This document shows positions 2,919 to 61,368 of a stretch of 64,000 bases of DNA, piece after piece. The position numbers and the translations under genes are program-made. Position 1 is the first letter of the stretch. Each line of letters starts with the position of its first letter. The notes beneath the pieces are model-generated. The model did not search any database. It saw only the letters and a program-made list of their open reading frames with translations, and was not told the origin of the DNA. The DNA is from an uncultured bacterium (lineage in GTDB: Bacteria > Krumholzibacteriota > Krumholzibacteriia > WVZY01 > JAKEHA01), in the NCBI GenBank assembly GCA_964560355.1, contig CAZLLI010000001.1, forward strand, positions 834-64,833, read 5' to 3'.

Positions 2919-4186
2919 AAATCGCCTTCCACCAGCTTGAAGTCGCCCACGCCGAACATGTCGAAGAACACGAAGGTGCGATTGACCGTGTAGTAGCGCC
3001 AAATCTCGTACGAGCCCTGCCCGCGCTGGTCCATCGCGGTGTCGATTTGCTCGGGTGCGCCGTAGCGAATGTAGACGCGCCCGCGATCCGAGCGCCAACC
3101 GGGACCGAACTGCGAGAACTCGCGCATGACGTATTGCACGCGCGACAGGTACTGCAGCAGGGCCTCGTTGTCGACCGTGCTGGGGTCGGGGTCGCGCGCG
3201 GCCCAGAACTTGTTCCACGCCGCGGTGCGCGCTTCCAGCGGCGCGTTGCGCAGCGGCTTGAGCTCCTCGTCGGTAGCGATGAGGCTCAGCATCTCGATGG
3301 TGTCGTCGAAGTCGACGCCCAGCATCGCGCGGGTGACGTCGATGCGCACGTCGGCGCTGGCGGTGGCGTCGCGCGCCGGGTCGAGCGTGTGCGCGCGCAG
3401 GTTCACGCGGTACAAGCCCGGCGACCAATCATCGACGTTGAAGGTGAGCAGGAAGTCGTCGTCGCGGCCGGCGAGGTTCAGGCGCCGCTTGCCGTACACC
3501 ACCTGGTGGTCGTTGGCGTCGATCACTTCATAGAAGACGTCGCACATGGTGGAGCGCTCCTCGTTGCCCTCGACGAACAGCGCGAACCGCACCGCGGGCT
3601 GGCGGTCGAAGCCGGAAACGGACGCGTCGGGCGGGGTGTCGGCCTTGAGCGTGGGCGCGACCTCGTGCCAGGGCGCGAACGTCTTCGGGAACGGCGTCGG
3701 CACTGTGATCACGGCCGGCGTTCCGAAGGCGAGTCCGGAGGCGAGAAAGTCGGGGACGCGCAACGAGGTCGAGCGCCGCATCCCGATGCCGGTATTCCGG
3801 ATGGTGAGGAGCGCGTCGATGACGTAGTCCCCCGGCGGGAGCTTGATCTCGCGCCACGCGCGCGATTTCATGTCGCGGCGCTTGGTTTCTTCGTACGTCT
3901 TTACGGTGGCGAAGCCGTGCAGCACGTAGGTGGTGGGCGGCGTGTTCTCCTTCCCCGCCGCGCGCAGCGAGATGTTGGCGTCGAAGCGCGCGTCGTAGTA
4001 ACCCTCCTTCTTCAGGAACACGAGCGTGCGGAACGGCACCTCGACGGTGATGCGCGTCATGGGCGTGCGGGTGGAGTCGAGGTATGCGTTGGCGAACAAG
4101 CCGAAGGGTTGCGCGTGCGCGCGCGCCGCGGAGAGCGCGAGCGCCGCGGAGAGCGAGATGGCGATCCATGCGTGTTTCGGCTTCAT
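2915..4186 (-). CDS. secreted GWxTD-domain protein (function unknown)
   Basis: Signal peptide MKPKHAWIAISLSAALALSAARAHAQ. The C-terminal region FGPGWRSDRGRVYIRYGAPEQID...YEIWRYY matches the GWxTD-domain consensus. Confidence 0.75.
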   Translation of the reverse strand: MKPKHAWIAISLSAALALSAARAHAQPFGLFANAYLDSTRTPMTRITVEVPFRTLVFLKKEGYYDARFDANISLRAAGKENTPPTTYVLHGFATVKTYEETKRRDMKSRAWREIKLPPGDYVIDALLTIRNTGIGMRRSTSLRVPDFLASGLAFGTPAVITVPTPFPKTFAPWHEVAPTLKADTPPDASVSGFDRQPAVRFALFVEGNEERSTMCDVFYEVIDANDHQVVYGKRRLNLAGRDDDFLLTFNVDDWSPGLYRVNLRAHTLDPARDATASADVRIDVTRAMLGVDFDDTIEMLSLIATDEELKPLRNAPLEARTAAWNKFWAARDPDPSTVDNEALLQYLSRVQYVMREFSQFGPGWRSDRGRVYIRYGAPEQIDTAMDQRGQGSYEIWRYYTVNRTFVFFDMFGVGDFKLVEGDL

Positions 4187-4252: not shown

Positions 4253-5500
4253 CTACTCGTGGCGCAGCGCCGTGACCGGGTCCATGTCGCTCGCGCGGCG
4301 CGCGGGGTAGAGCCCGAACCCGATGCCCACCAGGACCGAAAACACCAGGGCCACGATGGTCCACGCGAGCGAGAACACGAACGGGAAGTGGATCAGCTTC
4401 GACACCCCGTACGCGAGCACCGTGCCCGCGGCCACGCCGATGATGCCGCCGACGCCCGTCAGCGTTCCGGCTTCGATCAGGAACTGGCGCAAGATGTCGC
4501 CGCGCGCGGCGCCGATGGCGCGGCGCACGCCGATTTCGCGCGTGCGCTCGGTGACCGAGACCAGCATGATGTTCATGACGCCGATGCCCCCCACCAAGAG
4601 GCCGATCGACGCGATGATGGTCAGCACGATTCCGATGGGGACCGTGATCTTCTTGACCAAGTCGAGGAACGACTCGCTGGTGCCCACCGCGAAGTCGTCG
4701 GCCTTCCCGGGTCGAAGGCCGTGCTGCACGCGCATCGCGCGCTTCACTTCTTGGGCGCCCTTCTCCAGGTCGGCGTCGTCGTGCACGGTGGCACCGAGCG
4801 TCACCACGTCGTTTTCCGTGTGGAAGTCCTTGGCGAAGGTGGTGTGCGGCACGCACACGAAATTGTCCGACCACGCCCCGAAGATCGAGTGGCGCGGCGC
4901 GATGGTCCCGATCACCTGGTAGCGCGCGCCTCGGATCACCACGTAGCGCCCGATCGGATTCGTCTCCTTGAACAGGTCCTTGGCCGGGCCCGCCGCCAGC
5001 ACCACCACGCGCGCGCGGAAGCGTTCCTCGCTCTCGCTGTAGAAGCGCCCGCGGTCGACGGTGAGCGAGAACAACTCCGGCAGGCGGTAGGTCGAGCCTA
5101 GGATGCTGGTGGGCGGCGTTTTTTCGCCCTCGTAGCGCACCACGAATTCGCCCTGCGACTCCACCATGAACACCGACGCGTCGACGCTCGGGCAATTGCG
5201 CGCGATGGCGGCGGCGTCCTCGCGCGTCAGCTTGGGGCGCCGCTCCAAGTTCTCCTCGTTGTCGCCCGACACCGCGAAGTCGAAACGCTGCACGTAGATG
5301 TAGGGGCGGTTGGCGGACGCCATGTCGGCGTAGATCTTCCGGCTCAAGCCCGAGAGCACCGTCACCATCATGAGCACGGTCGCGATGCCGATAGCGACAC
5401 CGACAATGAGGAGCGCCGACCGCATGCGGTGCGAGCGCATGACCTCGATCGCTTGCGCGACGTTCTCGTCCCAGAGGTTGTTACCGGTCGGCGTCTGCAT
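4253..5500 (-). CDS. MacB/FtsX-family ABC efflux permease (no ATPase domain)
   Basis: 415 aa. N-terminal TM helix, large periplasmic domain, then a C-terminal FtsX-like three-TM bundle (…GVMNIMLVSVTERTREIGVRRAIGA…). Confidence 0.85.
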   Translation of the reverse strand: MQTPTGNNLWDENVAQAIEVMRSHRMRSALLIVGVAIGIATVLMMVTVLSGLSRKIYADMASANRPYIYVQRFDFAVSGDNEENLERRPKLTREDAAAIARNCPSVDASVFMVESQGEFVVRYEGEKTPPTSILGSTYRLPELFSLTVDRGRFYSESEERFRARVVVLAAGPAKDLFKETNPIGRYVVIRGARYQVIGTIAPRHSIFGAWSDNFVCVPHTTFAKDFHTENDVVTLGATVHDDADLEKGAQEVKRAMRVQHGLRPGKADDFAVGTSESFLDLVKKITVPIGIVLTIIASIGLLVGGIGVMNIMLVSVTERTREIGVRRAIGAARGDILRQFLIEAGTLTGVGGIIGVAAGTVLAYGVSKLIHFPFVFSLAWTIVALVFSVLVGIGFGLYPARRASDMDPVTALRHE

Positions 5501-5501
5501 G

Positions 5502-6746
5502 CTACTCCGACCGCAATGCTTCGACCGGGTCGAGGCGCGCGGCGCGCAGCGCGGGGTAGGTGCCGAACACGAGCCCCAGCGCGATCGTCACCGCGAACGC
5601 GATCCCGACCAGGGCCGCGTTCACCACGTACGGAAGCACCGACACCGCCGACACCAGCGCCGCGATCGCGAAGCCGATCGACATGCCGACCACGCCGCCG
5701 AACACCGACAGCGTCGCCGACTCCACCAGGAATTGCCACATGATGGCCGCCTGCGGCGCGCCCACCGCCTTGCGCAGGCCGACTTCGCGCGTCCGCTCGG
5801 TGACCGAGACCACCATGGTGTTCATGAGCACGATGCCGCCCACCAGCATGGAGACGCCGACCAACGCGACCAGCGCCGTCATGATGCCGCGGCTGACCGA
5901 CTTCCACAGTGTGATGAGCTGCTCGCTCGACGCCACCGCGAAGTCGTTTTCGTCGCCGGGGTGGAGCCCGTGCCGCACGCGCATCGCCACCATCGCTTCT
6001 TCCATGGCGTCGTCCATGTGACGGATGTCGGCGGCGGCGATCTGAATGTCGACCGATTGGTTGGGGCCGAACACCTTGCGGTACGCACCCAGCGGAATGA
6101 TGACGAAGCGGTCGCGGCTCTGCCCCAGCACCTTGCCGCGCTTCGCCGCCACCCCCACCACGCGGAAGTGGCGGTTGCCGATGCGCACCGTGCTCCCCAG
6201 CGCCTCGTGCGGCGCGAGCAGGCCTTCGTACACGTCCCACCCCAGCAGCGCGACCTGCGCGTTCTCGCGGTCGTCGACCTCGGTGAGGTGGCGGCCGGTC
6301 GCGACCGGGATGTCGCCCACGTAGGGATAGTAGGCGTCGCACCCGGTGACCGTCACGTTGACGCTCTTCCCCAGCGACGACACGGTGACGTTCCCGGTCT
6401 CGGCGCGTGCGCTCACGTACGACGACCACTGTAACGATTCGCGCAGCGACGCCGCGTCCTCGCGCGTGATCCTGGGGTTGTGCATGAGCTTGTCGATGAA
6501 CTTCTCGAAGTCTTCGATGGCCTCGAAAAAGTTGACGCGCTGGACGGTGAAGACGTTGCTGCCTTCGGAGGCGACTTCGTTGCGCATGTATAGGTCGATC
6601 CCGCCCAACAGCGAGACCACCGCGATCACCGACATGATGCCGACGATATTGCCGAGGAGGGTGAGGAAGGTGCGCAGCTTGTTGGCGAGGAGCGCGTGGT
6701 ACGCGATGCGTACGCCTTCGAAGAGGACGCGGACCGACGGGCGCAC
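5502..6746 (-). CDS. MacB/FtsX-family ABC efflux permease, paralog
   Basis: 414 aa with the same architecture (…LMNTMVVSVTERTREVGLRKAVGA…). Two nucleotides separate it from the downstream permease. Confidence 0.85.
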   Translation of the reverse strand: MRPSVRVLFEGVRIAYHALLANKLRTFLTLLGNIVGIMSVIAVVSLLGGIDLYMRNEVASEGSNVFTVQRVNFFEAIEDFEKFIDKLMHNPRITREDAASLRESLQWSSYVSARAETGNVTVSSLGKSVNVTVTGCDAYYPYVGDIPVATGRHLTEVDDRENAQVALLGWDVYEGLLAPHEALGSTVRIGNRHFRVVGVAAKRGKVLGQSRDRFVIIPLGAYRKVFGPNQSVDIQIAAADIRHMDDAMEEAMVAMRVRHGLHPGDENDFAVASSEQLITLWKSVSRGIMTALVALVGVSMLVGGIVLMNTMVVSVTERTREVGLRKAVGAPQAAIMWQFLVESATLSVFGGVVGMSIGFAIAALVSAVSVLPYVVNAALVGIAFAVTIALGLVFGTYPALRAARLDPVEALRSE

Positions 6747-19233: not shown

Positions 19234-20284
<1,051 letters not shown>

Positions 20285-41052: not shown

Positions 41053-41966
41053 CGCGCGGCACCCGCGGCGATCCCGTTGGCGTCGACGCCCCGCAGCTCG
41101 CCGAGGCGCATGAGCACGAGGTACGCGTCCTCGAGCGTGACCGGCACGCGCGCGAAGCCGGCCGGCGGATTGCCCTTGGGTTCGTAGATGCGCGCGCGGT
41201 TGCGCCCTTCGAAGAGGAGCGCTTGCGTCACCGTGCGCTCGCCGCGCAGCTTGGGCAGTTCGGCGACGTCGACAACGCCTTCGTAGATGTGCCCGTCGAT
41301 GGCGGCGCGCGCTTCGCTCGGGGTGGTGAGCGCGAGCAGGCGCCCTTCGCGAATCACCGCGAAGCGCGGGCACAGCACCGCGACGTCTTCGACGATGTGG
41401 GTCGAGAGCAGCACGATGCGGTCGGCCGCGAGCTCCGACAACAATTGGTAGAAGCGCAGGCGTTCCTCCGGGTCGAGGCCCGCGGTGGGCTCGTCGACGA
41501 TGATCAGGCGCGGGTCGCCCGCGATCGCTTGCGCGATCCCGAGGCGCTGGCGCATGCCGCCCGAGTAGCCCTTGACCGCGCGCTTGGCGGCGAACGTGAG
41601 GTTGACGCGATCGAGCAGCGCCGCCACCAGCTGCTTGCGCCCGTGCGGTCCGTCGACGCCTTTGAGCGTCAAGAGGTGCGTCAGCATCGCTTCGCCCGAA
41701 AGGTGCGGGTAGAACCCGAACTCCTGCGGGAGGTAGCCGAGCCGCGGCCACAAGCGTTCGGGGTGCGCGAGAATGTCGACGCCGTCGAGCGTGACGGTGC
41801 CCGAGGTCGGCTCGAGGAGGCCCGCGAGAATCTTCATGAAGGTCGACTTGCCGGCGCCGTTTGGGCCCAGGAGGCCGAACATACCGGGCGCGACATCGAG
41901 GTCGACGCCGTTCAAGGCGGTGACGGGACCGGGATAAATCTTGGTGAGCGCGCGAGCGGAGAGCAC
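41049..41966 (-). CDS. ABC transporter ATP-binding protein (ABC-2 type partner)
   Basis: The GTG at 41966 has GAGGAGG 7 nt upstream. GPNGAGKSTF Walker A, YSGGMRQRLGIAQA signature, LIIVDEPTAGLD Walker B. 305 aa. Confidence 0.9.
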   Translation of the reverse strand: MLSARALTKIYPGPVTALNGVDLDVAPGMFGLLGPNGAGKSTFMKILAGLLEPTSGTVTLDGVDILAHPERLWPRLGYLPQEFGFYPHLSGEAMLTHLLTLKGVDGPHGRKQLVAALLDRVNLTFAAKRAVKGYSGGMRQRLGIAQAIAGDPRLIIVDEPTAGLDPEERLRFYQLLSELAADRIVLLSTHIVEDVAVLCPRFAVIREGRLLALTTPSEARAAIDGHIYEGVVDVAELPKLRGERTVTQALLFEGRNRARIYEPKGNPPAGFARVPVTLEDAYLVLMRLGELRGVDANGIAAGAAR

Positions 41967-49320: not shown

Positions 49321-52221
49321 CTACTTGAGCAACACCATCTTGCGCGTCATCCGCTGACCGTCGACGTCGAGCACGCAGAAGTATACGCCGCTCGACACCG
49401 ATCCGCCGTTGCGATCTTTTCCATCCCACACCGCGGCGTGCGACCCGGCCGGGAAGGTCTGGTCCACCAGCGTACGCACGACGCGCCCCGACGTGTCGAG
49501 CACGAACAGGCGCACGCGCGACGCCGCCGGGACGTCGAACGGAATCGTCGTTTGCGGATTGAACGGGTTGGGGTGGTTCTGTCCCAGCGCGAGCGTGAGC
49601 GCAGCCGTGGTCACGGTCGCGGTCGGCGAGCGGTACTCGCTCCCCTCGCGCGTGCGCACCACCAGATCGTAGTGGTACGTGGTGCTGGGCTCTACGCCGC
49701 GGTCGACGAACGAGCGCGTGTCGTCGGCGGGGCCTTGCGCCACCACGACCGGCGTCGCGGCGCCGGCGTCGCGGCGGTACAGCGTGTACGTCGCCATGGG
49801 TTCGTCGCTCGAGAAGTTCCAGCTCACTTCGACGGCGGAGCCCGCGCGCACGGCTTCGAAGCGCGTGATCAAGACCGGGGTCGGGCCGCCGTCGCGGTTG
49901 ACGGGAATCACGACGTCGTTGGCGCCGGCGAAATCGTCGACGAAATACGAAAGGCGCGCGTATCCCGGCGTGCCCTGCGGCAGCACGAAGCGAAGCTCGA
50001 GCACCGCGACGGCGAAGTTGGCTGGCACGCCCGAGAGCGTGTAGGCCCCGATACGACGCGACCACGGAATCGGAATCGGAACCGGGATCGGCGCCGGGTA
50101 AACCGCGAGTGCCTCCCAGCCGAGGGTCGCACCGATGCGCGACGCCCGAATGAACGACACGGTGGGATCGGTGCTCACGGTGAACGCGAACGATTGCAGC
50201 GACGGAATTCCCGACGCAAACACTTGGGTGATGAGCGTGTCGCCTTCCGCCCAGGTCGGGTACGCGAACACGGTCGGCGTGGTCGGATTCGCCGGCGCCG
50301 CGGCGGCAGCCCCGCCGCAGAACGTGCACGACCCATCGACCGCTTGCTTGTGGATGCAGCGCGCGTCGCGCGGCGTCACAATGCTATTACAGTCGACGTC
50401 GGCGCGCCGGTCGGACCCGGTGCCCCCGCACGCCGCGCCCACGGCAAGCTGGAGCGCGCACTGCGCGTCGTCGACGGTGAGCGATCCGTCGCCGTTGACG
50501 TCGCCGTCGCCGGTCCCGCCCGGTACCACGGTGAACGACCACAACGGGCCGATCGTCAGGTTGGCCCCGTCGAACACGTCGATGCGCCAGTAGTACCGCA
50601 TCCCCACCGTGAGCGTGCCCGGGGCGTAGGAGCGCGACGGCCAATCGGCGGCGACGGCGGGGGGCGACGTCGTCGTCCCGAAGTAGACGACATGCGTCAG
50701 CGGGTCGCCGTTGGGGTCCGTCGACGACCAGGTCAAGACGGAGAGCGGGAACGCGATCCCGCCGTTGGGCGGGGACGGGTTGAAGGCCGGGTTGGGCGGA
50801 GAATTGTTGGCGCGCGTGCGGAAGGTCCACACCGGTCCGTCGCTCTGTGCGCCGAGCGGATCGCGCGCCATGACGCGCCAGAAGTACGACGTGTTGGGAA
50901 GCAGGGTGCCGGGATCGTACGAACGCGTCGTCAACCCGGGGCCGGCCAGGGGCGGGTTCGAATCCGTGCCGAAATACACGTCGAAGGTGAGCGGGTCGGC
51001 GTCGGGGTCGAAGCACGACCACGTCAGCCCGGGATCGAGCGAGACGTTGTCGGCCCCGTGGACGGGATTGGGGTTGTAGGGAATCACGGGCTGGCCGTTG
51101 GCCTCGCGCGTGGTGAACGTCCACGTCGGCCCCGATGTCTCCGCCAGCCCGTCACTGGCGACGACGCGCCAATAGTAGGGCGTGTCGGGCGCGAGGACGC
51201 CGGGCGTGTACTCGGGCTGCAAGACGTCCTCCGCGACCAAGGGCGGATTCGGCGACGTGCCGAGGTAGACGTCAAAGGTCAGCACGTCGTTGTCGATGTC
51301 GCCCGCCCCCCAGAAGAGGGTCGCGTTCAGCTGGACGCCGCTCTGACCGCTGATCGGGTGCGGGCTCTCGGGCGGAAACGGCGGCGTGTTGCTCGCGCGC
51401 GTGGTAAACGCCCACACCGGCCCCGACGATTCGAGTCCGAGCGCGTCGCGCGCAACCACGCGCCAGTAGTGCTGGGTGAACGGCGCGAGCGCGGCCGGGA
51501 CGTAGTTCGGCTCCGAAAGGTGCGACGCGACCAAGGGCGGCGACGGCGTGGTGCCGATATAGATGTCGTAGTCCACCAGGTTGCCGTCGACATCGTCCGC
51601 GTACCAATTCATGAACGGGCGCGTGCTCGACCCCGCAGTATTGTCTTGCGGGAACGGATTCGACGGCGCGTAGGGCGCGCTGTTGCCGAGGCACGCGCAC
51701 GACGCGTCCGCGTTCATGTGACTGGTGACGCCGGCGATGGGAAGGTCCTGAAACGCGCAGTCGCTCGCGGACAGCGTCTCCAGCGCGGGGTCGGGGATGA
51801 TCGGATAGGGGCAGCACGACGCGGTCGCGCCGCCGGTTTGGTAGTAGACGATCTGCAGCACGTTGACGGGATCGTCGACGCACTGCGAGAGCGCGACCGA
51901 CACGCCGGTCTGCGAATTCCCGAGTACGAGCGCGGCGCTGGCCGCTTGGTCGTAGAGATAGGTGGCGCCGTAGCACGCGGGTAGTGGTGCGGCGAATTGG
52001 ACCGCGGTGACGCCGCGCGGGTCGGGACGAACGACGACGTACGCGGTGACGTAGCCGGGCGCGTCGCCGCTGAACGAGCACGAGTTCCCGGACGCGTCGC
52101 TATAGAGGCCGATGGAAGCGTTCTGCGCGCGGGCGGACGTCGCCGCCATGCAAATCGAAAGGAGAAGTGCCGCCCGAACGAGTCGCGCGGCGAAACCGCG
52201 TGGCCAGAAGAACTCCGGCAT
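49321..52221 (-). CDS. giant secreted T9SS-cargo protein (paralog 1): Cys-rich N-domain + 4 FN3-like repeats + dockerin-like segment + type-A CTD
   Basis: Signal peptide MPEFFWPRGFAARLVRAALLLSICMAATSARAQ. Conserved Cys-rich domain at aa 33-177. Four repeats of the form DPDGDxLTFDVYFGT…PPLV…YYWRVVARD…GPxWxFTT. GDGDVNGDGSLTVDDAQCA…ADVDCNSIVTPRDARC is a paired dockerin-like Ca loop. The C-terminus …GQNHPNPFNPQTTIPFDVP…SGVYFCVLDVDGQRMTRKMVLLK is the Por secretion-system sorting domain. Confidence 0.85.
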   Translation of the reverse strand: MPEFFWPRGFAARLVRAALLLSICMAATSARAQNASIGLYSDASGNSCSFSGDAPGYVTAYVVVRPDPRGVTAVQFAAPLPACYGATYLYDQAASAALVLGNSQTGVSVALSQCVDDPVNVLQIVYYQTGGATASCCPYPIIPDPALETLSASDCAFQDLPIAGVTSHMNADASCACLGNSAPYAPSNPFPQDNTAGSSTRPFMNWYADDVDGNLVDYDIYIGTTPSPPLVASHLSEPNYVPAALAPFTQHYWRVVARDALGLESSGPVWAFTTRASNTPPFPPESPHPISGQSGVQLNATLFWGAGDIDNDVLTFDVYLGTSPNPPLVAEDVLQPEYTPGVLAPDTPYYWRVVASDGLAETSGPTWTFTTREANGQPVIPYNPNPVHGADNVSLDPGLTWSCFDPDADPLTFDVYFGTDSNPPLAGPGLTTRSYDPGTLLPNTSYFWRVMARDPLGAQSDGPVWTFRTRANNSPPNPAFNPSPPNGGIAFPLSVLTWSSTDPNGDPLTHVVYFGTTTSPPAVAADWPSRSYAPGTLTVGMRYYWRIDVFDGANLTIGPLWSFTVVPGGTGDGDVNGDGSLTVDDAQCALQLAVGAACGGTGSDRRADVDCNSIVTPRDARCIHKQAVDGSCTFCGGAAAAAPANPTTPTVFAYPTWAEGDTLITQVFASGIPSLQSFAFTVSTDPTVSFIRASRIGATLGWEALAVYPAPIPVPIPIPWSRRIGAYTLSGVPANFAVAVLELRFVLPQGTPGYARLSYFVDDFAGANDVVIPVNRDGGPTPVLITRFEAVRAGSAVEVSWNFSSDEPMATYTLYRRDAGAATPVVVAQGPADDTRSFVDRGVEPSTTYHYDLVVRTREGSEYRSPTATVTTAALTLALGQNHPNPFNPQTTIPFDVPAASRVRLFVLDTSGRVVRTLVDQTFPAGSHAAVWDGKDRNGGSVSSGVYFCVLDVDGQRMTRKMVLLK

Positions 52222-52293
52222 GGGTATCCGACGCCGGGTTGGAACTGTGGCGTCGCAAGGAAGTGTACACCGCGCGCTAAAACGCCGTCAATG
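51700..52293. repeat. about 0.6-kb direct repeat, copy A (partner at 54700..55293, offset exactly 3000 bp)
   Basis: Aligning 51795..52278 against 54795..55278 by eye shows essentially 100% identity. A few mismatches occur in 51700..51795 and after 52278. The repeat covers the 5'UTR, start codon, signal peptide and Cys-rich domain of paralog 1. Confidence 0.85.
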
Positions 52294-52296
52294 AGC

Positions 52297-55221
52297 TCAC
52301 TTCAGCAGCACCATCTTGCGCGTGAGTCGCTCGCCGCCTACGTCGAGCACGTAGAAGTAAACGCCACTCGACACCGAGCGGCCACCACCGTCCCTTCCAT
52401 CCCACACAGCGTTGTGTGCACCCGCTGGCACGTTCTCATCCACCAACTTGCGCACCATGCGCCCGGCCGCGTCCATCACGAGCAATCTGACGCGCGCCGG
52501 TGCAGGTATGTCGAACGGGATCGTCGTCTGGGGATTGAACGGGTTCGGGTGGTTCTGACCGAGCGCCAGTGCCACCTGCGCCGTCGTTACGGTGACCGAT
52601 TGCGAGCGGAACTCGCCGCCGGCCTGAGTGCGAACGACCAGCTCGTAGTGATAGGTCGTGCCCGGCAGCACCGCGCGATCGACGTAAGAGCGCGTGCCGA
52701 CGTCGACGCCCTCCACGATTGCGACCGGCTTCGCCGCCCCCACGTCGTGACGGTAGACCGTGTAGCCCGCGATGGGTTCGTCGCTCGCGTAATCCCAGCG
52801 CACTTCAACATCAGAGCCGCTGCGAACGGCTTCGAAGCGCGAGATCAAAACAGGAGTCGGCGGGGCGCTCGGAACGATGATAAATGTGACCGGTTCGGCG
52901 CCCGCGAGATCGTCGATGCACGAGCTTATGGTCGCCGTGCCCGCGCGGTCGTCCGTCAGGTCGAAGTAAAGCAGCAGCATCAGCACGAAGTTCTCCGCGG
53001 GCGCTCCCGAGAGCGAGTAGCCGCCGACGCGTCCGAAGAATCCCGGGAAGGGGATAGCCAAACTTTGTAACCGGGCGAAACCGATTGTCGCACCGGCATT
53101 GACAGCGCCTTGAAACACCGCGTTACCACTGAGGTCGAGTTGGAAACCCAGCGCCTCGAGCGAGGCAACACCCGAGACGAAGACCGGCGCAACCACGAAT
53201 TGGCCCTCCGAATACGTCGTCCCCACGTAGAGTGTCGGCACCAGCACCGCCGCGTGGTCGATCTCGACGGCGCTCGCGGCCGACGCGCCAACACAAAACG
53301 CGCAGGAACCGTCGAGCACGTGCTTGTGGATACAGCGGGCGTCGCGCGGGGTCACGGAAGCATTGCAGTCGACATCGGCGCGTTGGGCTGAATACCCTGG
53401 GCAGCCGGAGCCGCCATAGACGTACCCGCCTAACGCGCAGGACGCATCATCTAACGTGATCGAATTGTCTCCATTCACATCGCCTTTGCCGGGTGCTGGT
53501 AACGTGGTGAACGACCACGTTGGGCCGTCGGTCGTCAGCAAACCGTCCGACGCGACCACTTTCCACAAGTACGTGGTGAGCGGTGCCAGCCCGCCCGGCA
53601 TCACGCCGTGCGACGTCGTCAGGCCCGTCGCGATGAGGGTCAGCGGTGCGACGGTCCCGAAATACAAGTCGTAACTGACGGGATCGGCATCGGGGTCGCT
53701 ACCCACCCAATGCACCGTGCCCAACCCCGCGGGGACCGGGATGGTCCCACCGTCGGGGGGAGTGGGAAACGCAGGAACCGACGGTGCCGCGTTGAACAAC
53801 CGCGTTTGGAACGACCAGATCGGGCCGGCCGTCGTCAATCCGGCGGGATCGCGCGCCACCACATACCAATAATACGTGGTGCCCAAGGCGAGGAGTCCCG
53901 TCGGGAATACCCCCGCCGACAAGTTGTCACTGACCAACGGCGGAGGAGTCGTCGTGCCGAAGTACACGTCATAACGGAGCGCGTCTCCATCGGGATCGCT
54001 GCCACCCCAGGTCAGCGTCAGGCCAGCAAATGGGTGATCCACGCTTCCATCGGGCGGAGTGGGGCTGGTCGGTGGGTTGGGCGGTCGGTTCGCAAAGCTT
54101 CTGGTCGTAAATCTCCATGTGGGTCCCGAGACTACATTGAGTCCGTCCGTAACCACGATACGCCAGAAATACTCCGTCGCTGTCGCGAGCGGCCCCGGCG
54201 AGTACGTCATGGCAGTTTGGTTGTCCGACACGAGGGGCGGCGGATCCGACGTGCCGAAATACACGTCGAAGCCGACGGCGTCGCCATCGGGGTCCTCGCC
54301 GACCCACGTGAGCGTTGGACTCAGTATTACGTTATTCTCGAAATCAGGCGGTTGTGGACTGTCTACTATGTAGGGCGGCGAATTCCCTCCCGAAGCCCTC
54401 GTGGCGAATGTCCACGTTGGCCCCGATGTCTCGAGTCCCTGCTCGTCGCGGGCGACTACGCGCCAGTAGTGCAGCGTGTTGGCAGCCAACTGTGGCGAAA
54501 AGTAATTCGCAGACGGGAGACCGGACGCGACCAACGGGGGCGACGGCGTCGTCCCCAAGTAGATATCGTACTCCGACAGATTGCCGTCGATATCGGACGC
54601 GTACCAACTCATGATCGGAGTCCGGCTGATCCCCGACGTCAGGTCTTGCGGAATGGGATTGGACGCCATCGAGGGGGCGCTATTTCCGGCACACTGGCAC
54701 GACGCGTCCGCGTTCATGTGGCTGGTGACGCCCGCGATGGGAAGGTCTTGGAACGCGCAGTCGCTCGCGGACAGCGTCCCCAGCGCGGGGTCGGGGATGA
54801 TCGGATAGGGGCAGCACGACGCGGTCGCGCCGCCGGTTTGGTAGTAGACGATCTGCAGCACGTTGACGGGATCGTCGACGCACTGCGAGAGCGCGACCGA
54901 CACGCCGGTCTGCGAATTCCCGAGTACGAGCGCGGCGCTGGCCGCTTGGTCGTAGAGATAGGTGGCGCCGTAGCACGCGGGTAGTGGTGCGGCGAATTGG
55001 ACCGCGGTGACGCCGCGCGGGTCGGGACGAACGACGACGTACGCGGTGACGTAGCCGGGCGCGTCGCCGCTGAACGAGCACGAGTTCCCGGACGCGTCGC
55101 TATAGAGGCCGATGGAAGCGTTCTGCGCGCGGGCGGACGTCGCCGCCATGCAAATCGAAAGGAGAAGTGCCGCCCGAACGAGTCGCGCGGCGAAACCGCG
55201 TGGCCAGAAGAACTCCGGCAT
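52297..55221 (-). CDS. giant secreted T9SS-cargo protein (paralog 2)
   Basis: The first ~175 aa are identical to paralog 1 (DNA duplication). It diverges afterwards, with about 5 FN3-like repeats, a dockerin-like GDVNGDNSITLDDASCA…ADVDCNASVTPRDARC and the CTD …NHPNPFNPQTTIPFDIP…SGVYFYVLDVGGERLTRKMVLLK. Confidence 0.85.
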   Translation of the reverse strand: MPEFFWPRGFAARLVRAALLLSICMAATSARAQNASIGLYSDASGNSCSFSGDAPGYVTAYVVVRPDPRGVTAVQFAAPLPACYGATYLYDQAASAALVLGNSQTGVSVALSQCVDDPVNVLQIVYYQTGGATASCCPYPIIPDPALGTLSASDCAFQDLPIAGVTSHMNADASCQCAGNSAPSMASNPIPQDLTSGISRTPIMSWYASDIDGNLSEYDIYLGTTPSPPLVASGLPSANYFSPQLAANTLHYWRVVARDEQGLETSGPTWTFATRASGGNSPPYIVDSPQPPDFENNVILSPTLTWVGEDPDGDAVGFDVYFGTSDPPPLVSDNQTAMTYSPGPLATATEYFWRIVVTDGLNVVSGPTWRFTTRSFANRPPNPPTSPTPPDGSVDHPFAGLTLTWGGSDPDGDALRYDVYFGTTTPPPLVSDNLSAGVFPTGLLALGTTYYWYVVARDPAGLTTAGPIWSFQTRLFNAAPSVPAFPTPPDGGTIPVPAGLGTVHWVGSDPDADPVSYDLYFGTVAPLTLIATGLTTSHGVMPGGLAPLTTYLWKVVASDGLLTTDGPTWSFTTLPAPGKGDVNGDNSITLDDASCALGGYVYGGSGCPGYSAQRADVDCNASVTPRDARCIHKHVLDGSCAFCVGASAASAVEIDHAAVLVPTLYVGTTYSEGQFVVAPVFVSGVASLEALGFQLDLSGNAVFQGAVNAGATIGFARLQSLAIPFPGFFGRVGGYSLSGAPAENFVLMLLLYFDLTDDRAGTATISSCIDDLAGAEPVTFIIVPSAPPTPVLISRFEAVRSGSDVEVRWDYASDEPIAGYTVYRHDVGAAKPVAIVEGVDVGTRSYVDRAVLPGTTYHYELVVRTQAGGEFRSQSVTVTTAQVALALGQNHPNPFNPQTTIPFDIPAPARVRLLVMDAAGRMVRKLVDENVPAGAHNAVWDGRDGGGRSVSSGVYFYVLDVGGERLTRKMVLLK

Positions 55222-55293
55222 GGGTATCCGACGCCGGGTTGGAACTGTGGCGTCGCAAGGAAGTGTACACCGCGCGCTAAAGCGCCGTCAATC
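54700..55293. repeat. about 0.6-kb direct repeat, copy B
   Basis: Partner of 51700..52293. It covers the 5' end of paralog 2 (the antisense ORFs 54680..55081 and 51272..52081 in the track share an identical 108-aa prefix). Confidence 0.85.
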
Positions 55294-56772
55294 GCCGTCT
55301 TCGGTGGTGTCGCTCATCTCGGTGACGAAGGGCGGCGGCAGCATGGATTCCACGCAGGAGGCGTCGAGACCCACCGTAGTGCCGGCGTCGAGAAAGGCGA
55401 GAATGAGCGCGTCGTAGCACTCCATGTTGGCGACGCCGTCGGGATAGTGACCCAAGTAGTCGATCACCACCACGCGGCTGTCGGAGAGCCGCGACGAGAC
55501 CTCCTGCGCCCACACCATCGGCGTCACGTAGTCCATGCCGCCCGCGATCAGCAGGGTCGGGATCGACGCCGCCACCGGCGCGAGCGCGTCGTCGGAGAGC
55601 GCGACCGTCGGCCACAACTTGCACGCGCCCGCTTGCTGGTCGACCCGATAGCGCCCCAGGAACGTTCCCGCCGTTTCGCTCTCGATTTCGTCTTCGGAAA
55701 TTCGCTGCGTCGCTTCCGGGCACGTTACGCACAGGTACATTCCCTCCGCGAACGGAGATTCCCCGCTGTCGGGACTCACGATCGAGAAGAACGGCGCGAA
55801 GTCGCCTTGCGCGGCGTGGTGGACGATGTACGGCACCCCGCGCTGGTACTCCGTAGTAATGAGCAGCGTGCGCAGCGCTTCGAAGAACGGCCCGCGCTGG
55901 AGCGTCACCAGCCGCGTGTCCGAGGTGTCGGAGTAGACCGCGCCCTCGGAGCCGTCCGCGAAGGCGTCCAGCAACGCTTCCCAGTCGCTGCGGATCGACG
56001 GGAAGGCGTCGCCGCACAACGGATCGCGTTCGCAGTCGTCGATTAGTTTTTGCATGACCTCTTCGGACGCGCGCGCGTGGTGGAGCGGGAGCTTCTCGTC
56101 GATCGGCACCGTGCCCGTCAAGACCGCGCAGCGCACGTTCTGCGGGTACTCGCGCATGTACGTCTGCGCGACGATGGTGCCGTACGACAACCCGATGAGG
56201 TCGATCTTCTCGTAGCCCATCGCGAGTCGCACCGCTTCCAAGTCGCGCACCGCGGCCATCGTGGTGTACTGCGTGAGGTCGGCGATCTTCTCCAGCTCGT
56301 CGCGGCAGCGCTTGACCGCGTCCGGCGGATACATCTCGTCGAGCTTGGACGCGCGCTCGAGCTCGGGGCAGCGCAGCGGATTCGACTCACCCGTACCGCG
56401 CTGGTCGACCAGGACCACGTCGCGCGTCGCGCGATAGCCCGTGCTGTCTTGCGCGTACCACGACGCCGCGCTCGACGCCGCCATACCCGGCCCACCCGCG
56501 AGGTCGAAGAGCGGCGCGTCCTTGACCCCGTTCGTGAGCGCGGGAATCACGATCACGCGCAGCGCGATCGTGCGCCCGCCGGGCTGGTCGCGATTCTCGG
56601 GCACCACGAGCTTCCCGACCAGCACCGAGGCGCTGTCGATCAATGTCGGTTCGAGCGCGAGCGTGCGCGGACGCGGCACCGTGTGCATCTCCGGAACCGG
56701 CGCTTGCGCCATTGCCAAAGCCGCGAGCAGAAACAGTAACGCGACGAAGAAGGCCGTCCGTGTCGAAATCAT
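55288..56772 (-). CDS. secreted alpha/beta-hydrolase, S33-type (tripeptidyl/prolyl aminopeptidase-like)
   Basis: Signal peptide MISTRTAFFVALLFLLAALAMAQA. GLSYG nucleophile elbow. Length and Cys pattern resemble secreted tripeptidyl aminopeptidases. Confidence 0.75.
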   Translation of the reverse strand: MISTRTAFFVALLFLLAALAMAQAPVPEMHTVPRPRTLALEPTLIDSASVLVGKLVVPENRDQPGGRTIALRVIVIPALTNGVKDAPLFDLAGGPGMAASSAASWYAQDSTGYRATRDVVLVDQRGTGESNPLRCPELERASKLDEMYPPDAVKRCRDELEKIADLTQYTTMAAVRDLEAVRLAMGYEKIDLIGLSYGTIVAQTYMREYPQNVRCAVLTGTVPIDEKLPLHHARASEEVMQKLIDDCERDPLCGDAFPSIRSDWEALLDAFADGSEGAVYSDTSDTRLVTLQRGPFFEALRTLLITTEYQRGVPYIVHHAAQGDFAPFFSIVSPDSGESPFAEGMYLCVTCPEATQRISEDEIESETAGTFLGRYRVDQQAGACKLWPTVALSDDALAPVAASIPTLLIAGGMDYVTPMVWAQEVSSRLSDSRVVVIDYLGHYPDGVANMECYDALILAFLDAGTTVGLDASCVESMLPPPFVTEMSDTTEDGD

Positions 56773-56802: not shown

Positions 56803-57534
56803 TCAGCGGTACAGCGCTTTGATTCTTCCCCACGTCGAGGCTTCGACCGCGAGCGGCATGACGTAGAAGCGCCACACCAGGCTGCTGCTGTTGAAGGTCC
56901 CGTCCGACGCCACCACGCGCCAATAGTAGACGGTGTTCGCTTGCAGCGGGCCGACGTCGAAGAAGCGATCGCTGATCGCAGCCGCCACCTGCGGCGGCGG
57001 GTTGGTGGTGCCGAAGAGGACGCGGTAGGTAACGGGCTGAAGATCGGTGTCGCCCGACCGCCACCGCAGCGTGACGGTGGGAGGCGCGTACCCCAAGTTG
57101 GCCGGCGTTGGGTCGAAGGGCGGAATCGGCGGCGTGTTCTCTTTGGTGACGAACGACCACGTCGGGCTCGCGGCCTCGAGCCCGGCGGGATCGCGCGCGA
57201 CGACGCGCCAGTGATACGACGTGATGAACTCGAGCGTGGGCGGAATGTAGTAAGGCGTGGCGACGCCGGTCGCGACCAGCGGCGGATCGTCGCTCGCGCC
57301 GAAATAGATGTCGTAGGTGACGTTGTCGCCGTCGGGGTCGCCGCCGACCCAAGACACGGACGAGCCGATCATCTGCTCGGCCGCGCCGTCGAACGGTCGC
57401 GGGACCGACGGGACGTTGGGCGCCGTGTTGTCGGCGAAAGAGACTTGCGGCAGGAGCGCCGCGATCAGCGCGAGCGCGACGAACGCGACGCACCGATCAG
57501 CACGTCGTTCGTGTACGTATGCTGACATGCTCAT
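56803..57534 (-). CDS. small secreted protein with two FN3-like repeats, ending in STWGRIKALYR
   Basis: Signal peptide (…VAFVALALIAALLPQVSFA). Two repeats (DPDGDNVTYDIYFGASDDPPLVA…YHWRVVARD…; …VTYRVLFGTTNPPPQVA…YYWRVVASD…). It has no T9SS CTD; the C-terminal motif is shared with the 29568..30167 protein. Confidence 0.65.
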   Translation of the reverse strand: MSMSAYVHERRADRCVAFVALALIAALLPQVSFADNTAPNVPSVPRPFDGAAEQMIGSSVSWVGGDPDGDNVTYDIYFGASDDPPLVATGVATPYYIPPTLEFITSYHWRVVARDPAGLEAASPTWSFVTKENTPPIPPFDPTPANLGYAPPTVTLRWRSGDTDLQPVTYRVLFGTTNPPPQVAAAISDRFFDVGPLQANTVYYWRVVASDGTFNSSSLVWRFYVMPLAVEASTWGRIKALYR

Positions 57535-57591: not shown

Positions 57592-60500
57592 TCACTTGAG
57601 CAGCACGAGCTTCCTCGTCAACCGCTCGCCTCCGACATCGAGGACGTAGAAGTATACACCACTCGAGACGGCCGCACCGCGATCGTCCTTGCCCTGCCAC
57701 TCGACGCGATGCGAGCCCCCTCCCTGCTCCTCGTCGACCAGCGTCTTCACGAGGCGACCTGAAAGGTCGATTATGCGCAGGCGGACGCCCTCTCGTTCCG
57801 TCGAGGCTGGCAATTCGTACGTAATCGTGGTCCTCGGATTGAACGGGTTGGGGTAGTTCTGGTGCAGCGCAAGCTCCTGGGTCGCGGGCCGGACCTCGAC
57901 AGTCGGGCCCAAGTCTATGAATAGTTGTGGCGCGTCCATGAGATCGTCGACGAACCCGCTGATCAGGATATCGCCATTGATCCCGCGGCTCATGTCGAAA
58001 TAGAGCTCGATGAATTCCCCGGTGCCCGTGACCGCCGCACTCGCAAGGGTGTAGGCGCCGATCACGGACGTACCCAAACTCGGGGTGCGGACCTCGATGA
58101 TTTCGAAGTCGCTGGACGCACCCCGACGCGCGGCGCCGATCATCGGCATCTTGGCGTTCGACATTGAATAGAACCCGAACGCTTCTAGTGAAGGCACATT
58201 TGCCGCTGAAAGTCGCACGACGAGCGTGTCGGCACGCGTCGACGTTGAAGCGAGTGACACCACTGGCCACATGGCGGTCCGCTTTCCCCGCGCCGACGCA
58301 CCGGCGACGGCGCGATCGCAAAGTTCACACGAACCGTCGATCGCTGCCTTGTGGATACAACGCGCGTCGCGTGGCGTCACCGCGCCGCCACAGTCGACGT
58401 CGCCCACGGTGTACGCGGCAGCTCCGCCGCAATCCGGGTTCCATAGCGCGACGTCCATCGCGCATTGCGCGTCGGCGAGCGTCAACACTCCGTCCTGCAC
58501 CAGGTCACCGGGCTGCCGTACCACAAAATTCCAAAGTGACCCCGGCGTCGTCGCCACGCCGTCCGACACGTCCACGCGCCAGTAATAGGCGCGTCCTATT
58601 TCCAACCGACCAGGTGCGTACTGTGGTTCGGGCGTCGACGAAACTACCAGGGGCGGCGAAGATGTCCGGCCGAAGTACACCGCGTAGGTGAGAGACTGGC
58701 CATCGACATCGCTCGCGGTCCAGGTGAGCACAGGATACGACGGCCCCGACGCGCCGCCGTGCCACGGCCACGGACTCGACGCGGCGGTCGGCGGCGTGTT
58801 GGGCTTGGTCGTGAAGGACCAGGTCGGTCCCGACGCCGCGGCGCCGACGGTGTCGCGAGCAACGACGTGCCAGTAGTATCGCGTTGCCAACGCAAGTGCG
58901 CCCGGGCTGTACGTGCGATTGACGATCGATGTCGCGACAAGGGGCGGGACGTCGCCGGTACCGAAGTACACGTCGTAGGTCACGAGATCCCCATCGGGGT
59001 CACCGCTGCTCCATGAGAGATTGGCCGTGGGTGAAACCCCACTCGCACCGTCGGACGGCGATGGATACGACGGCACTGAGGGCGCTCGATTCGACGCGGC
59101 GGTCGTGAATGACCATTGGACTCCCGACGTGGAGTCGCCGTGCGCGTCCGTTGCGACGACGCGCCACTGATACCCGGTCGCGTACGCAAGCGTGGCGGGT
59201 TTGAACGAACGCGACACCAGGTTCGACGCGACGAGCGGCGGATTGGGCCCAGGTCCGAGGTACACGCGATACGTGATCGCGTCCAAGTCCGGATCACTGC
59301 AGCTCCACGTGAGCGTCGGATTGCGTGTGATATCGCTCGCACCGTTGACGGGCGACGGGCCGGCGGGTTCGCCGGGTGGGCTATTGCCCGGAATCGTTGT
59401 GAAGGTCCACAGCGGACCTAGCGTTGTGAGTCCGCCGGTGTCCCGCGCCAGCACGCGCCAGTAGTAGCGCATCCCGCGAACGAGGATCGGCGGCGCGTAG
59501 GACGGCGAGATGCGATTCGTCGCCACGAGCGGCGGATTCGGCGAGGTCCCCAGATAAACGTCGTAATAGAGAAACTGTCCCTCCGGATCACTCGCGCTCC
59601 ACGATAGGACGGGCCCCGCCGAGACGTTGGTCGCGCCGTCGGGGGGCGATGGATTCGCCGGGGGTGTTGGCGGACTGTTACCGGCCATCGTGTTGAATCG
59701 CCACGTTGGCCCCGACGTCGCAGCCCCCTTCGAATCGCGCGCCACGATGCGCCAGTAATAGCGCGTCGAGAATCCGAGCGCTCCGGGGGAGTACGTACTG
59801 GCGGCCACGTTGCTCGCCACCAATGGCGGAGTCACCGCCGTTCCGAAGTACACATCGAACTTGACCACGTCGGCGTCCGGGTCGGTGCCGGTCCATGCGA
59901 GCGTCTGGTCGACCGGTCGGTTTGTAGCCGCGTTCGCTGGGACTGGATTCGACGGCGCGTTGGGCGGAAGGTTGGACGGACGGGTCGTAAACGTCCACGT
60001 CGGTCCCGATGTCTCTGCTCCCGCCGGATCGCGCGCGACGATTCGCCAATAGTGCGGAGTCGAGAAGCTGAGCGTGTCGGGGTCGTAGGTGGCGGCCGGC
60101 CACGCGGTCACCACGAGCGGCGGCGGCGACACCGTCCCGAAGTACACATCGAAAGTAAGCGGATCGTTGTCGCGATCGCTTGCGGACCAGGACACTCTTT
60201 GGTCGATAGGACGGTTGGTAGCGTTGTTCGACGGAACCGGAGCGAGGGGAACGCTGGGCGGGTAATTGGCGGGGCGCGTGACGAAACTCCACACCGGTCC
60301 CGAGGTCTCGTGTGCCGCGATATCGCGGGCGACCACGCGCCAGTAGTATGTGACCGAGAATGTGAGCAGCGCGGGTGTGAAAGTAGAGATGGTCTGGTTT
60401 GCGGCGACCAACGGGGGCGACGATGCCGTGCCGAAGTACACGTCGTACATCAACGGGTCGCCGTCGATGTCGGCTCCTTGCCACGCCAAGGTCACGGCGA

Positions 60501-61368
60501 GCAGCACATCGGTCGCGGTGTTCGCGGGCGAAGGCTCGTACGGCGAGCTCGGCGGCGAATTAGCGGCGCGAGTGGTAAACGTCCAGGTAGGGCCGGATTC
60601 CTCGAGTCCGAAAGCGTCGCGGACGACGACACGCCAGTAGTGCTGCGTCAATTCGGCAAGCGGAGTCGACGGCGTGTAGTTCGCAGTTGCGAGGCCGGCC
60701 GCCGCAAGGGGAGGTGTCGTCGTTGTACCGAGGTAGACGTCGTAGCCCGCGATATTGTTGTCGAAATCCTGCGATGTCCACGTCATCAGCGGGATGACGC
60801 TGTGACTGGAAGTCTGATTCGCTGGCGACGGCGCCGAGGGCGGTATCGGCGGGCTGTTGCCGACGCACTCGCAGGTCGCATCCGCGTTGAAGTGCGCCAC
60901 GACACTCGTGGTCGGTATTTCGCTGTAGTCGCAACCGCTCGCCGCGATGCTCCCCATGGATGGGGCCGGTAGAATCGGGTACGGACAGCAAGACTGCGTC
61001 GACCCCGAACGCATGTAATTGATCCGCAGCACGCTCACGGGTTGCGTATAGCAGCTTTGCAACACAATCGAGACGCCGGTCTGCGAGTTCCCGAACTTCA
61101 TCATCCCCGGTGTGACCGTCTCTCCGACGTACACCGCCCCTAGACAGGCCGGCACTGGAGCTGAAAACTGCACGGTGTTGACGCCCGCGAAATCGGGGCG
61201 GAACACGACGTAGGCCGTGATGGGACCGGGGTTGTTTCCTGAGAAGCTGCAGGTGTTACCGGTGACATCGGTGTAAAGACCGATGTTGGCGCCCGCGGCG
61301 CGGGCAGGACGCGCCACGAGCATCGCGCATAGAAACGCGGCGGCCAGACAAGCGCACAGTACCCTCAT
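57592..61368 (-). CDS. giant secreted T9SS-cargo protein (paralog 3, about 9 FN3-like repeats)
   Basis: 1258 aa. Signal peptide MRVLCACLAAAFLCAMLVARPARA. The Cys-rich N-domain is about 50% identical to paralogs 1 and 2 (…GLYTDVTGNTCSFSG…CCPYPILP…DATCEC). It has about nine FN3-like repeats and a dockerin-like segment (…GDVDCGGAVTPRDARCIHK…). The CTD is …NYPNPFNPRTTITYELP…SGVYFYVLDVGGERLTRKLVLLK. Confidence 0.85.
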   Translation of the reverse strand: MRVLCACLAAAFLCAMLVARPARAAGANIGLYTDVTGNTCSFSGNNPGPITAYVVFRPDFAGVNTVQFSAPVPACLGAVYVGETVTPGMMKFGNSQTGVSIVLQSCYTQPVSVLRINYMRSGSTQSCCPYPILPAPSMGSIAASGCDYSEIPTTSVVAHFNADATCECVGNSPPIPPSAPSPANQTSSHSVIPLMTWTSQDFDNNIAGYDVYLGTTTTPPLAAAGLATANYTPSTPLAELTQHYWRVVVRDAFGLEESGPTWTFTTRAANSPPSSPYEPSPANTATDVLLAVTLAWQGADIDGDPLMYDVYFGTASSPPLVAANQTISTFTPALLTFSVTYYWRVVARDIAAHETSGPVWSFVTRPANYPPSVPLAPVPSNNATNRPIDQRVSWSASDRDNDPLTFDVYFGTVSPPPLVVTAWPAATYDPDTLSFSTPHYWRIVARDPAGAETSGPTWTFTTRPSNLPPNAPSNPVPANAATNRPVDQTLAWTGTDPDADVVKFDVYFGTAVTPPLVASNVAASTYSPGALGFSTRYYWRIVARDSKGAATSGPTWRFNTMAGNSPPTPPANPSPPDGATNVSAGPVLSWSASDPEGQFLYYDVYLGTSPNPPLVATNRISPSYAPPILVRGMRYYWRVLARDTGGLTTLGPLWTFTTIPGNSPPGEPAGPSPVNGASDITRNPTLTWSCSDPDLDAITYRVYLGPGPNPPLVASNLVSRSFKPATLAYATGYQWRVVATDAHGDSTSGVQWSFTTAASNRAPSVPSYPSPSDGASGVSPTANLSWSSGDPDGDLVTYDVYFGTGDVPPLVATSIVNRTYSPGALALATRYYWHVVARDTVGAAASGPTWSFTTKPNTPPTAASSPWPWHGGASGPSYPVLTWTASDVDGQSLTYAVYFGRTSSPPLVVSSTPEPQYAPGRLEIGRAYYWRVDVSDGVATTPGSLWNFVVRQPGDLVQDGVLTLADAQCAMDVALWNPDCGGAAAYTVGDVDCGGAVTPRDARCIHKAAIDGSCELCDRAVAGASARGKRTAMWPVVSLASTSTRADTLVVRLSAANVPSLEAFGFYSMSNAKMPMIGAARRGASSDFEIIEVRTPSLGTSVIGAYTLASAAVTGTGEFIELYFDMSRGINGDILISGFVDDLMDAPQLFIDLGPTVEVRPATQELALHQNYPNPFNPRTTITYELPASTEREGVRLRIIDLSGRLVKTLVDEEQGGGSHRVEWQGKDDRGAAVSSGVYFYVLDVGGERLTRKLVLLK

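Follow-up and report, generated by a model that had tools for sequence, protein, structure and literature searches.

A near-identical promoter-and-head module on two otherwise diverged tandem genes of an uncultured Krumholzibacteriota bacterium

How can two neighboring genes begin with exactly the same half kilobase of DNA when the rest of their coding sequence has diverged until its silent sites are saturated? This question is raised by g1 and g2, adjacent genes on the minus strand of a 64,000-nucleotide stretch (hereafter the window; contig CAZLLI010000001.1) from an uncultured bacterium of the Krumholzibacteriota. Judged by their sequences, g1 and g2 appear to be old tandem paralogs for large secreted surface proteins. 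An earlier annotation made from the DNA letters alone (hereafter the sequence-only reading) had reported that 51795-52278 and 54795-55278 are essentially identical, and had proposed either the recent conversion or duplication of a 5′ module or an error of assembly. The identity is complete (484/484 positions) and, as described below, extends further than was reported. We consider it probable that an older copying event placed a 596-bp module before both genes, and that recent gene conversion then homogenized the inner 502 bp of this module.

The exact tract covers 502 bp in each copy (Table 1). It is the sole run of at least 31 bases shared between two places in the window, and self-BLAST of the window returns it within the sole strong repeat, in which 874 bp are aligned over 882 columns at 90.5% identity. 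Read in the sense of the genes, homology starts at 52292/55292, with one mismatch (52282) ahead of the exact tract, and continues after the tract to 51697/54697 with five more. The resulting module is identical at 590 of its 596 positions, and the six differences are found at g1-side positions 52282, 51779, 51751, 51748, 51733 and 51721 and nowhere else. Specifically, the module at g1 starts 5 bp after the g2 stop codon, and its 3′ boundary (codon 175/176) falls within a conserved NADASC-x-C motif that ends the N-domain. The sequence-only reading had placed the start codon, the signal peptide and the whole Cys-rich domain in the identical stretch. The first two are indeed there, but the exact tract takes in only five of the eight Cys, and it is the larger module that reaches codon 175, where the Cys-rich domain ends.

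The spacing of the copies, exactly 3000 bp, is real, and had been regarded as suspicious in itself. This distance is the sum of g2 (2925 bp) and a 75-bp spacer in a stretch free of insertions and deletions. It is the native alignment register of the two paralogs, as is evident from the diverged homology that keeps to this offset beyond the module (51419-51696, at 67-72% identity and without gaps). The 3′ ends of the genes align at an offset of 2976, not 3000. As a mark of artificial copying the offset was consequently discarded, given that the diverged homology keeps the register and the edges of the repeat are graded, and it no longer serves as a warning sign.

Divergence between the copies falls into three tiers, with no differences in the 502-bp core, six in the 94 bp of its edges, and approximately 30% beyond. 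The edge tier is distinct both from the core (Fisher p=1.3e-5) and from the stretch that follows it, where 61 of 200 positions differ (p=1.2e-6). Within the coding sequence, synonymous divergence (dS) is 0 over codons 1 through 147, where none of 116 synonymous sites differ, and 0.24 over codons 148 through 175, where there are four synonymous changes and one replacement (E148G). In the remaining codons dS is approximately 1.1, such that synonymous divergence is saturated, and nonsynonymous divergence (dN) is approximately 0.43. In the coding alignment, identity is unbroken for up to 442 nt, compared to a maximum of 46 among 10,000 permutations of the differences (a Sawyer-type test). Outside codons 1 through 175 the genes share 61% of their DNA positions (42-79% in sliding windows), and the protein bodies are approximately 52% identical, well below the figure of about 80% given earlier for the rest of the genes.

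Can selection alone produce such a pattern? If the head domain were under strong purifying selection, then its sequence might persist in both genes without any recombination, and Cys and Gly positions are indeed invariant across the N-domain family. However, the identity between the copies is equally complete at the 116 synonymous sites and at all 60 non-coding bases of the exact tract, whereas orthologous N-domains differ at 22-47% of their DNA positions. Protein-level selection cannot freeze silent positions, and therefore it is excluded as the cause; we give this explanation practically no credence. The earlier suggestion that the N-domains are kept identical by selection is thus replaced by recency.

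Comparison with other genomes bears on the same issue. The nearest relatives are Candidatus Krumholzibacteriia metagenome-assembled genomes (MAGs), and the genome scan yielded relatives at 62% identity or less only. A metagenome scan with the N-domain of g1 recovered no relative, and a protein search with a g2-specific region, aimed at partial sequences of the same species in Logan, gave nothing above 57% identity. A second metagenome scan, anchored on the upstream neighbor g3, yielded L015 through L020. Synteny of g3 is retained in L001, L003 and L015, and in the Logan contig L021 that is considered below. Inside the exact tract g1 equals g2, yet it shows only 53-78% DNA identity to the orthologues A (L001) and X (L003), whereas outside the tract sliding-window identities and trees place g1 equally distant from g2, A and X. 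In the relatives themselves the 5′ ends are not homogenized: those of A and R in L001 have 73% DNA identity, and the N-domains of X and Y in L003 differ at 49% of protein positions. The g1/g2 tract therefore exhibits four of the features by which partial gene conversion or concerted evolution is recognized, namely a jump in identity, paralogs that are closer than orthologues, an excessive run length, and relatives that lack the homogenization. On this point the earlier proposal of a recently converted or duplicated 5′ module is borne out.

The site after g3 is a dynamic array whose copy number varies among relatives. After the g3 homologue, L001 has one copy (A) and a remnant (R), whereas L003 has two copies (X and Y). 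In neither locus does a spacer separate the upstream from the downstream copy; the ATG of R overlaps the stop codon of A, and Y begins with a GTG that overlaps the stop of X. In L015/L016 the single paralog is followed by homologues of the genes that lie downstream in the window. R (P0004, L001 10001-10327) consists of the first 95 amino acids of an N-domain gene fused to the final residues (RTRKMVLLK) of the C-terminal domain, and is an internal-deletion remnant of the downstream paralog. The 3′ ends of X and Y are 81% identical over 548 bp, with a core of approximately 180 bp at 92-98% (3950-4130 versus 6230-6410), whereas elsewhere these two genes are 50-60% identical. This pattern suggests gene conversion at the opposite end of the genes in a related lineage.

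The upstream part of the module carries a promoter-like site. Approximately 60 bp before the ATG had been described as 5′ untranslated region. Its identity between the copies holds, but not all of it is untranslated leader: the probable leader is approximately 33 nt long, and the rest of the 60-70 bp upstream is the site TTGACG-N18-TACACT. We aligned the two window copies with the regions 5′ of the first paralog in L001, L003 and L015. In these five sequences both hexamers are invariant while the spacer varies, and directly before the ATG lies a near-invariant leader, CGACGCCAC.GTT.CAACCCGGCGTC. Promoter-like site and leader are conserved in four other lineages, which upholds the idea of a shared promoter. 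The two sites of the module are two of the four promoter-like sites found in 13.4 kb. Similarly, the leader motif has two matches in the window, where none are expected by chance, and it is present in a single copy in each relative (L001, L003, L015/L016 and L017). Because this promoter/leader element is single in the relatives and double only in the window, the duplication of promoter, leader and head is specific to the lineage of the window. The -35 hexamer of the g2 copy shares bases with the stop codon of g3, and the corresponding overlap with the g3 homologue exists in L003.

Some further properties of the leader were recorded. The element, which contains the inverted repeat GACGCC-N13-GGCGTC, is near invariant over four lineages whose coding DNA is approximately 70-75% identical. 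A search of Rfam gave no family match for the leader, and its folding is not significantly better than that of shuffled sequence (z = -1.7).

In the history that we favor, a first event would have placed the module, including a sigma-70-like promoter, the leader, the signal peptide and the complete head domain, before both genes. One junction of this event, after the g2 stop codon, would be non-homologous, and the other would lie in the NADASC motif. The two module copies would then have diverged by approximately 6%, until a recent non-reciprocal homologous recombination (intrachromosomal gene conversion) made the inner 502 bp identical again. Conversion would have spared approximately 11 bp on the 5′ side and 83 bp on the 3′ side, stopping short of the homology edges because it needs flanking homology. 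As an outcome, both genes carry the same promoter and leader, and may be co-regulated, while the same head would be displayed on different stalks.

A simpler scheme would involve a single recent event that copied the whole 596-bp module. If true, then patchy mismatch repair of the heteroduplex would have kept five ancestral g1 bases, the difference at 52282 would be a later mutation, and no second conversion would be needed. One recent copy fits the presence of only one mismatch in the 5′-side 513 bp, and the other five differences are gathered within 59 bp at the 3′ boundary, beside the NADASC motif, where a crossover would resolve. However, the background divergence of approximately 30% predicts about 25 differences in these 83 bp, such that the retention of only five would represent unusual repair. 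Moreover, four of these five differences fall at third codon positions and are silent, which is what fresh neutral mutation would yield, and both edges of the exact tract are similarly intermediate in divergence. We regard the single-event scheme as unlikely.

Might the second copy exist only in the assembly? If assembly or polishing had introduced an artefact, or had merged the haplotypes of different strains, then the true genome would read g3-module-g1, and g2 with a copied front would have been threaded in via the repeat node. The records leave some room for this view: a single NCBI contig (112,735 bp) is the only recorded source of the complete g1 and g2 proteins, whereas Logan assemblies contain g3 and g5 as well. 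Two contigs that match the window at 100% identity (L022 and L023) end inside g3. The sole independent assembly across the tract is L021, a 2234-bp Logan contig from SRR26815634, and it runs from g3 straight into g1-type sequence. Specifically, it follows g3, the g2-side promoter variant (C at the 55282 position) and the 502-bp tract, and then agrees with g1 at each of the five edge positions. The contig extends as far as 51596, or 184 bp beyond the exact tract, and approximately the last 100 bp of this extension are fully g1-specific. Thus L021 confirms from other reads two of the four junctions, those from g3 to the module and from the module to the g1 body.

The artefact explanation nevertheless encounters several difficulties. 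Each copy has bases of its own at both edges (T versus C at 52282/55282, and the five positions at 51721-51779), which indicates that two physical copies of the module edges are present in the data. The g2 stop and the second promoter copy have no common k-mer that could create a false join, with homology beginning only 5 bp past the stop. A duplication error would render the whole 3-kb unit identical, but only 0.5 kb of the 3.0 kb is so, and the edge divergence of approximately 6% is too high for read cross-mapping to have polished the copies to identity. Two-copy arrays also occur at the same site in relatives. Finally, the Logan assemblies of these runs consist of short contigs, which end even at places without an exact repeat in the window, such that L021 can be a tip-clipped path; the positions of contig ends are not predictable from shared 31-mers, given that the window has no such shared run other than the 502-bp tract. 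Taken together with the head-to-g1-body junction that L021 confirms, these points make an artefact, which the sequence-only reading had kept as an option, quite improbable.

The two-step history must also face evidence that does not favor it. L021 skips g2, and the dominant genome in that sample could have one copy. The junctions between the g2 stop and the promoter and between the head and the g2 body come from one assembly. Cues to the direction of transfer disagree: position suggests that the g2-side module is ancestral, whereas body similarity suggests that g1 is the orthologue of the gene after g3 in relatives, the single paralog of L015 having 58.6% protein identity to g1 and 53.0% to g2. 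In addition, one event whose end was patchily repaired could account for the intermediate tier. A repeat-mediated deletion that always leaves a g1-like body beside g3 could reconcile position with body similarity.

Identical direct repeats such as these, 502 bp long and 3 kb apart, are a classic substrate for the deletion or amplification of a tandem unit. Under our preferred two-step history, the 0.5-kb repeats would permit the deletion or re-duplication of the 3.0-kb g2 unit. The structure of L021 is the product expected from recombination between the repeats, that is, the loss of g2. In comparison with known direct-repeat deletion systems, L021 has exactly the predicted structure. The contig could come from a natural haplotype that lacks the 3.0-kb unit, or equally from the route that the assembler took through the repeat after tips had been clipped from a fragmentary, low-coverage graph.

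This raises a more speculative possibility, to which we assign a small but real chance: the promoter-plus-head repeats might function as a recombination switch. In such a system the g2 unit would be reversibly lost and re-created, L021 would represent the deleted state, and recurrent conversion would keep one cohesin-like head and its promoter on alternative stalks. If true, then Krumholzibacteriia would vary, at the population level, a self-assembling surface layer built on cohesin-like and dockerin-like parts, and the switch would account for the constant presence of a g1-like body beside g3 in single-copy relatives.

Programmed variation of a more familiar kind was also considered, in the form of a diversity-generating retroelement pair, an invertible cassette, or silent-cassette antigenic variation. 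The tandem array of surface-protein genes, with a copy number that varies between relatives, is a setting that would suit such systems. However, the repeats are direct, exact and promoter-bearing, no inverted repeats flank the tract, and both genes are complete and have a promoter, which leaves no silent cassette. The six differences are not adenine-specific, though genes for reverse transcriptase or recombinase were not searched for systematically across the window. A retroelement or an invertible cassette was rejected on account of the direct exact repeats that include the promoter and of the lack of adenine-specific differences, and programmed variation as a whole is highly improbable.

Homogenization of one gene segment has precedents. 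In Helicobacter pylori, the pairs babA/babB, homA/homB and sabA/sabB undergo segmental concerted evolution by RecA-dependent intragenomic gene conversion, which changes expression and copy number (PMC3960876). Like these outer-membrane protein paralogs, g1 and g2 have one segment that is near-identical within the genome while the rest has diverged. In contrast, the bab and hom genes are homogenized at the 3′ end and occupy dispersed loci, whereas g1 and g2 are adjacent, in direct orientation, and homogenized at a 5′ end that includes the promoter. Their host also differs from H. pylori, being an uncultured Krumholzibacteriia-like bacterium. For prokaryotic duplicated genes such as tuf, the survey PMC6053082 describes paralogs that are closer within a genome than orthologues are, owing to recurrent gene conversion. 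Cases of the tuf type involve whole housekeeping genes over long times, unlike the single module of promoter and head on g1 and g2, whose bodies are saturated at silent sites.

Thus, g1 and g2 most likely represent a real and well-delimited but ordinary case of the well-known partial gene conversion of surface-protein paralogs. The process is textbook and its general significance is modest. Regardless, the locus provides a clean example from nature of gene conversion that acts on one module and takes the promoter with it, in a candidate phylum that has hardly been studied. Surface-protein genes in tandem evolve there as mosaics, and therefore neither orthology nor copy number at this locus can be read from single assemblies; the locus also flags where short-read assemblies break or take wrong paths. 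As a side product, the analysis exposes what is predicted to be a widespread, unannotated cohesin-like domain.

Table 1. Features of the g1/g2 locus and of the corresponding site in relatives. Coordinates are those of the window.
Feature	Coordinates	Strand	Description
Promoter-like site at g1	52262..52291	minus	TTGACG-18-TACACT; taken as derived second copy
Promoter-like site at g2	55262..55291	minus	TTGACG-18-TACACT; taken as ancestral position, adjoining g3
Leader element, g1 copy	52230..52255	minus	CGACGCCACAGTTCCAACCCGGCGTC, inverted repeat GACGCC/GGCGTC
Leader element, g2 copy	55230..55255	minus	
Exact repeat, copy 1	51780..52281	minus	60 bp 5′ of g1 ATG and g1 codons 1-147; 502/502 identical to 54780-55281
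Exact repeat, copy 2	54780..55281	minus	60 bp 5′ of g2 ATG and g2 codons 1-147
Near-identical module at g1	51697..52292	minus	596 bp; promoter-like site, leader, signal peptide, N-domain to Cys175
Near-identical module at g2	54697..55292	minus	first bases overlap g3 stop codon (55288-55290)
Cys-rich N-domain coding region, g1	51691..52125	minus	aa (amino acids) 33-177
Cys-rich N-domain coding region, g2	54691-55125	minus	
g1	49321..52221	minus	966 aa; paralog
g2	52297..55221	minus	974 aa; paralog, architecture as g1
g3	55288..56772	minus	494 aa; alpha/beta hydrolase, conserved upstream neighbor, synteny anchor
g4	56803..57534	minus	243 aa; two FN3-like repeats
g5	57592..61368	minus	1258 aa; third paralog
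L001 (ENA contig)			after g3 homologue: A (962 aa), then R (108 aa)
L003 (Krumholzibacteriia MAG)			after g3 homologue: X (964 aa), then Y (760 aa)
L015/L016 (JGI, 330-kb contig)			after g3 homologue: one paralog only

The proteins encoded by g1, g2 and g5 share a common architecture. In g1, a signal peptide is followed by the cohesin-like N-domain, four FN3-like repeats of approximately 98 amino acids each, a dockerin-like segment, a second cohesin-like sandwich, an fn3 domain, and a C-terminal domain of the FlgD_ig or type IX secretion system (T9SS) type. FlgD_ig (PF13860) scores exceed the cut-off of 27 in g1 (34.3), g2 (33.3) and g5 (31.4). For TIGR04183, which has a cut-off of 23, g5 scores above (31.3) and g1 (21.0) and g2 (21.8) score just below. 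The N-domain of g5 has 52% protein identity and is not homogenized.

The N-domain, with its eight conserved Cys, is predicted to form a nine-stranded beta-sandwich that can be superimposed on solved cohesins. A Pfam search of amino acids 1-190 of g1, g2 and g5 gave no match at E<=0.01, including to Cohesin (PF00963). The domain differs in several respects from the cohesin modules of cellulosomal and non-cellulosomal scaffoldins. Its sequence identity to solved cohesins is only 5-14%, it has the eight conserved Cys, and it is found either in proteins that end in a T9SS-type C-terminal domain or by itself, followed by a TWGxIKALY tail. A profile search located the domain in 1569 representative clusters, where it is N-terminal, C-terminal, or present as stand-alone proteins of approximately 185 amino acids.

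A dockerin-like segment and the second cohesin-like beta-sandwich are encoded at 49855-50517 in g1 (amino acids 569-789), 52831-53496 in g2 and 57871-58518 in g5. The segment, which in g1 covers amino acids 569-640, contains Cys (DVNGDG...TPRDARCIHK), and its Pfam Dockerin_1 matches are below threshold. For Dockerin type I (PF00404), g2 scores 16.6 bits, compared to a gathering threshold of 22.9. Weak Dockerin_1 matches occur in five of six family members (best E 6e-4), and dockerins in the PDB match with E values of 0.14-0.7. Each paralog protein may thus carry both partners of a cohesin-dockerin-type interaction.

The motif TWG[RKG]IK[AV]LY[KRDE] closes g4 and the stand-alone N-domain homologues P0005, P0007 and P0009. 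It resembles a sorting tag, of another kind than the FlgD_ig/T9SS-type domain that g1, g2 and g5 carry.

Other repeats were noted in passing. A distant family member (L013 8667-10539) contains an internal direct repeat of approximately 1.2 kb, with 92% identity at a 660-bp offset, which is probably a set of tandem domain repeats. The window also has two weak direct matches, one between 19640-19736 and 41472-41569 (81% identity) and the other between 4433-4596 and 5682-5845 (78%). The latter lies in two neighboring open reading frames of approximately 415 amino acids (4253-5500 and 5502-6746) that probably make up a further pair of tandem paralogs.

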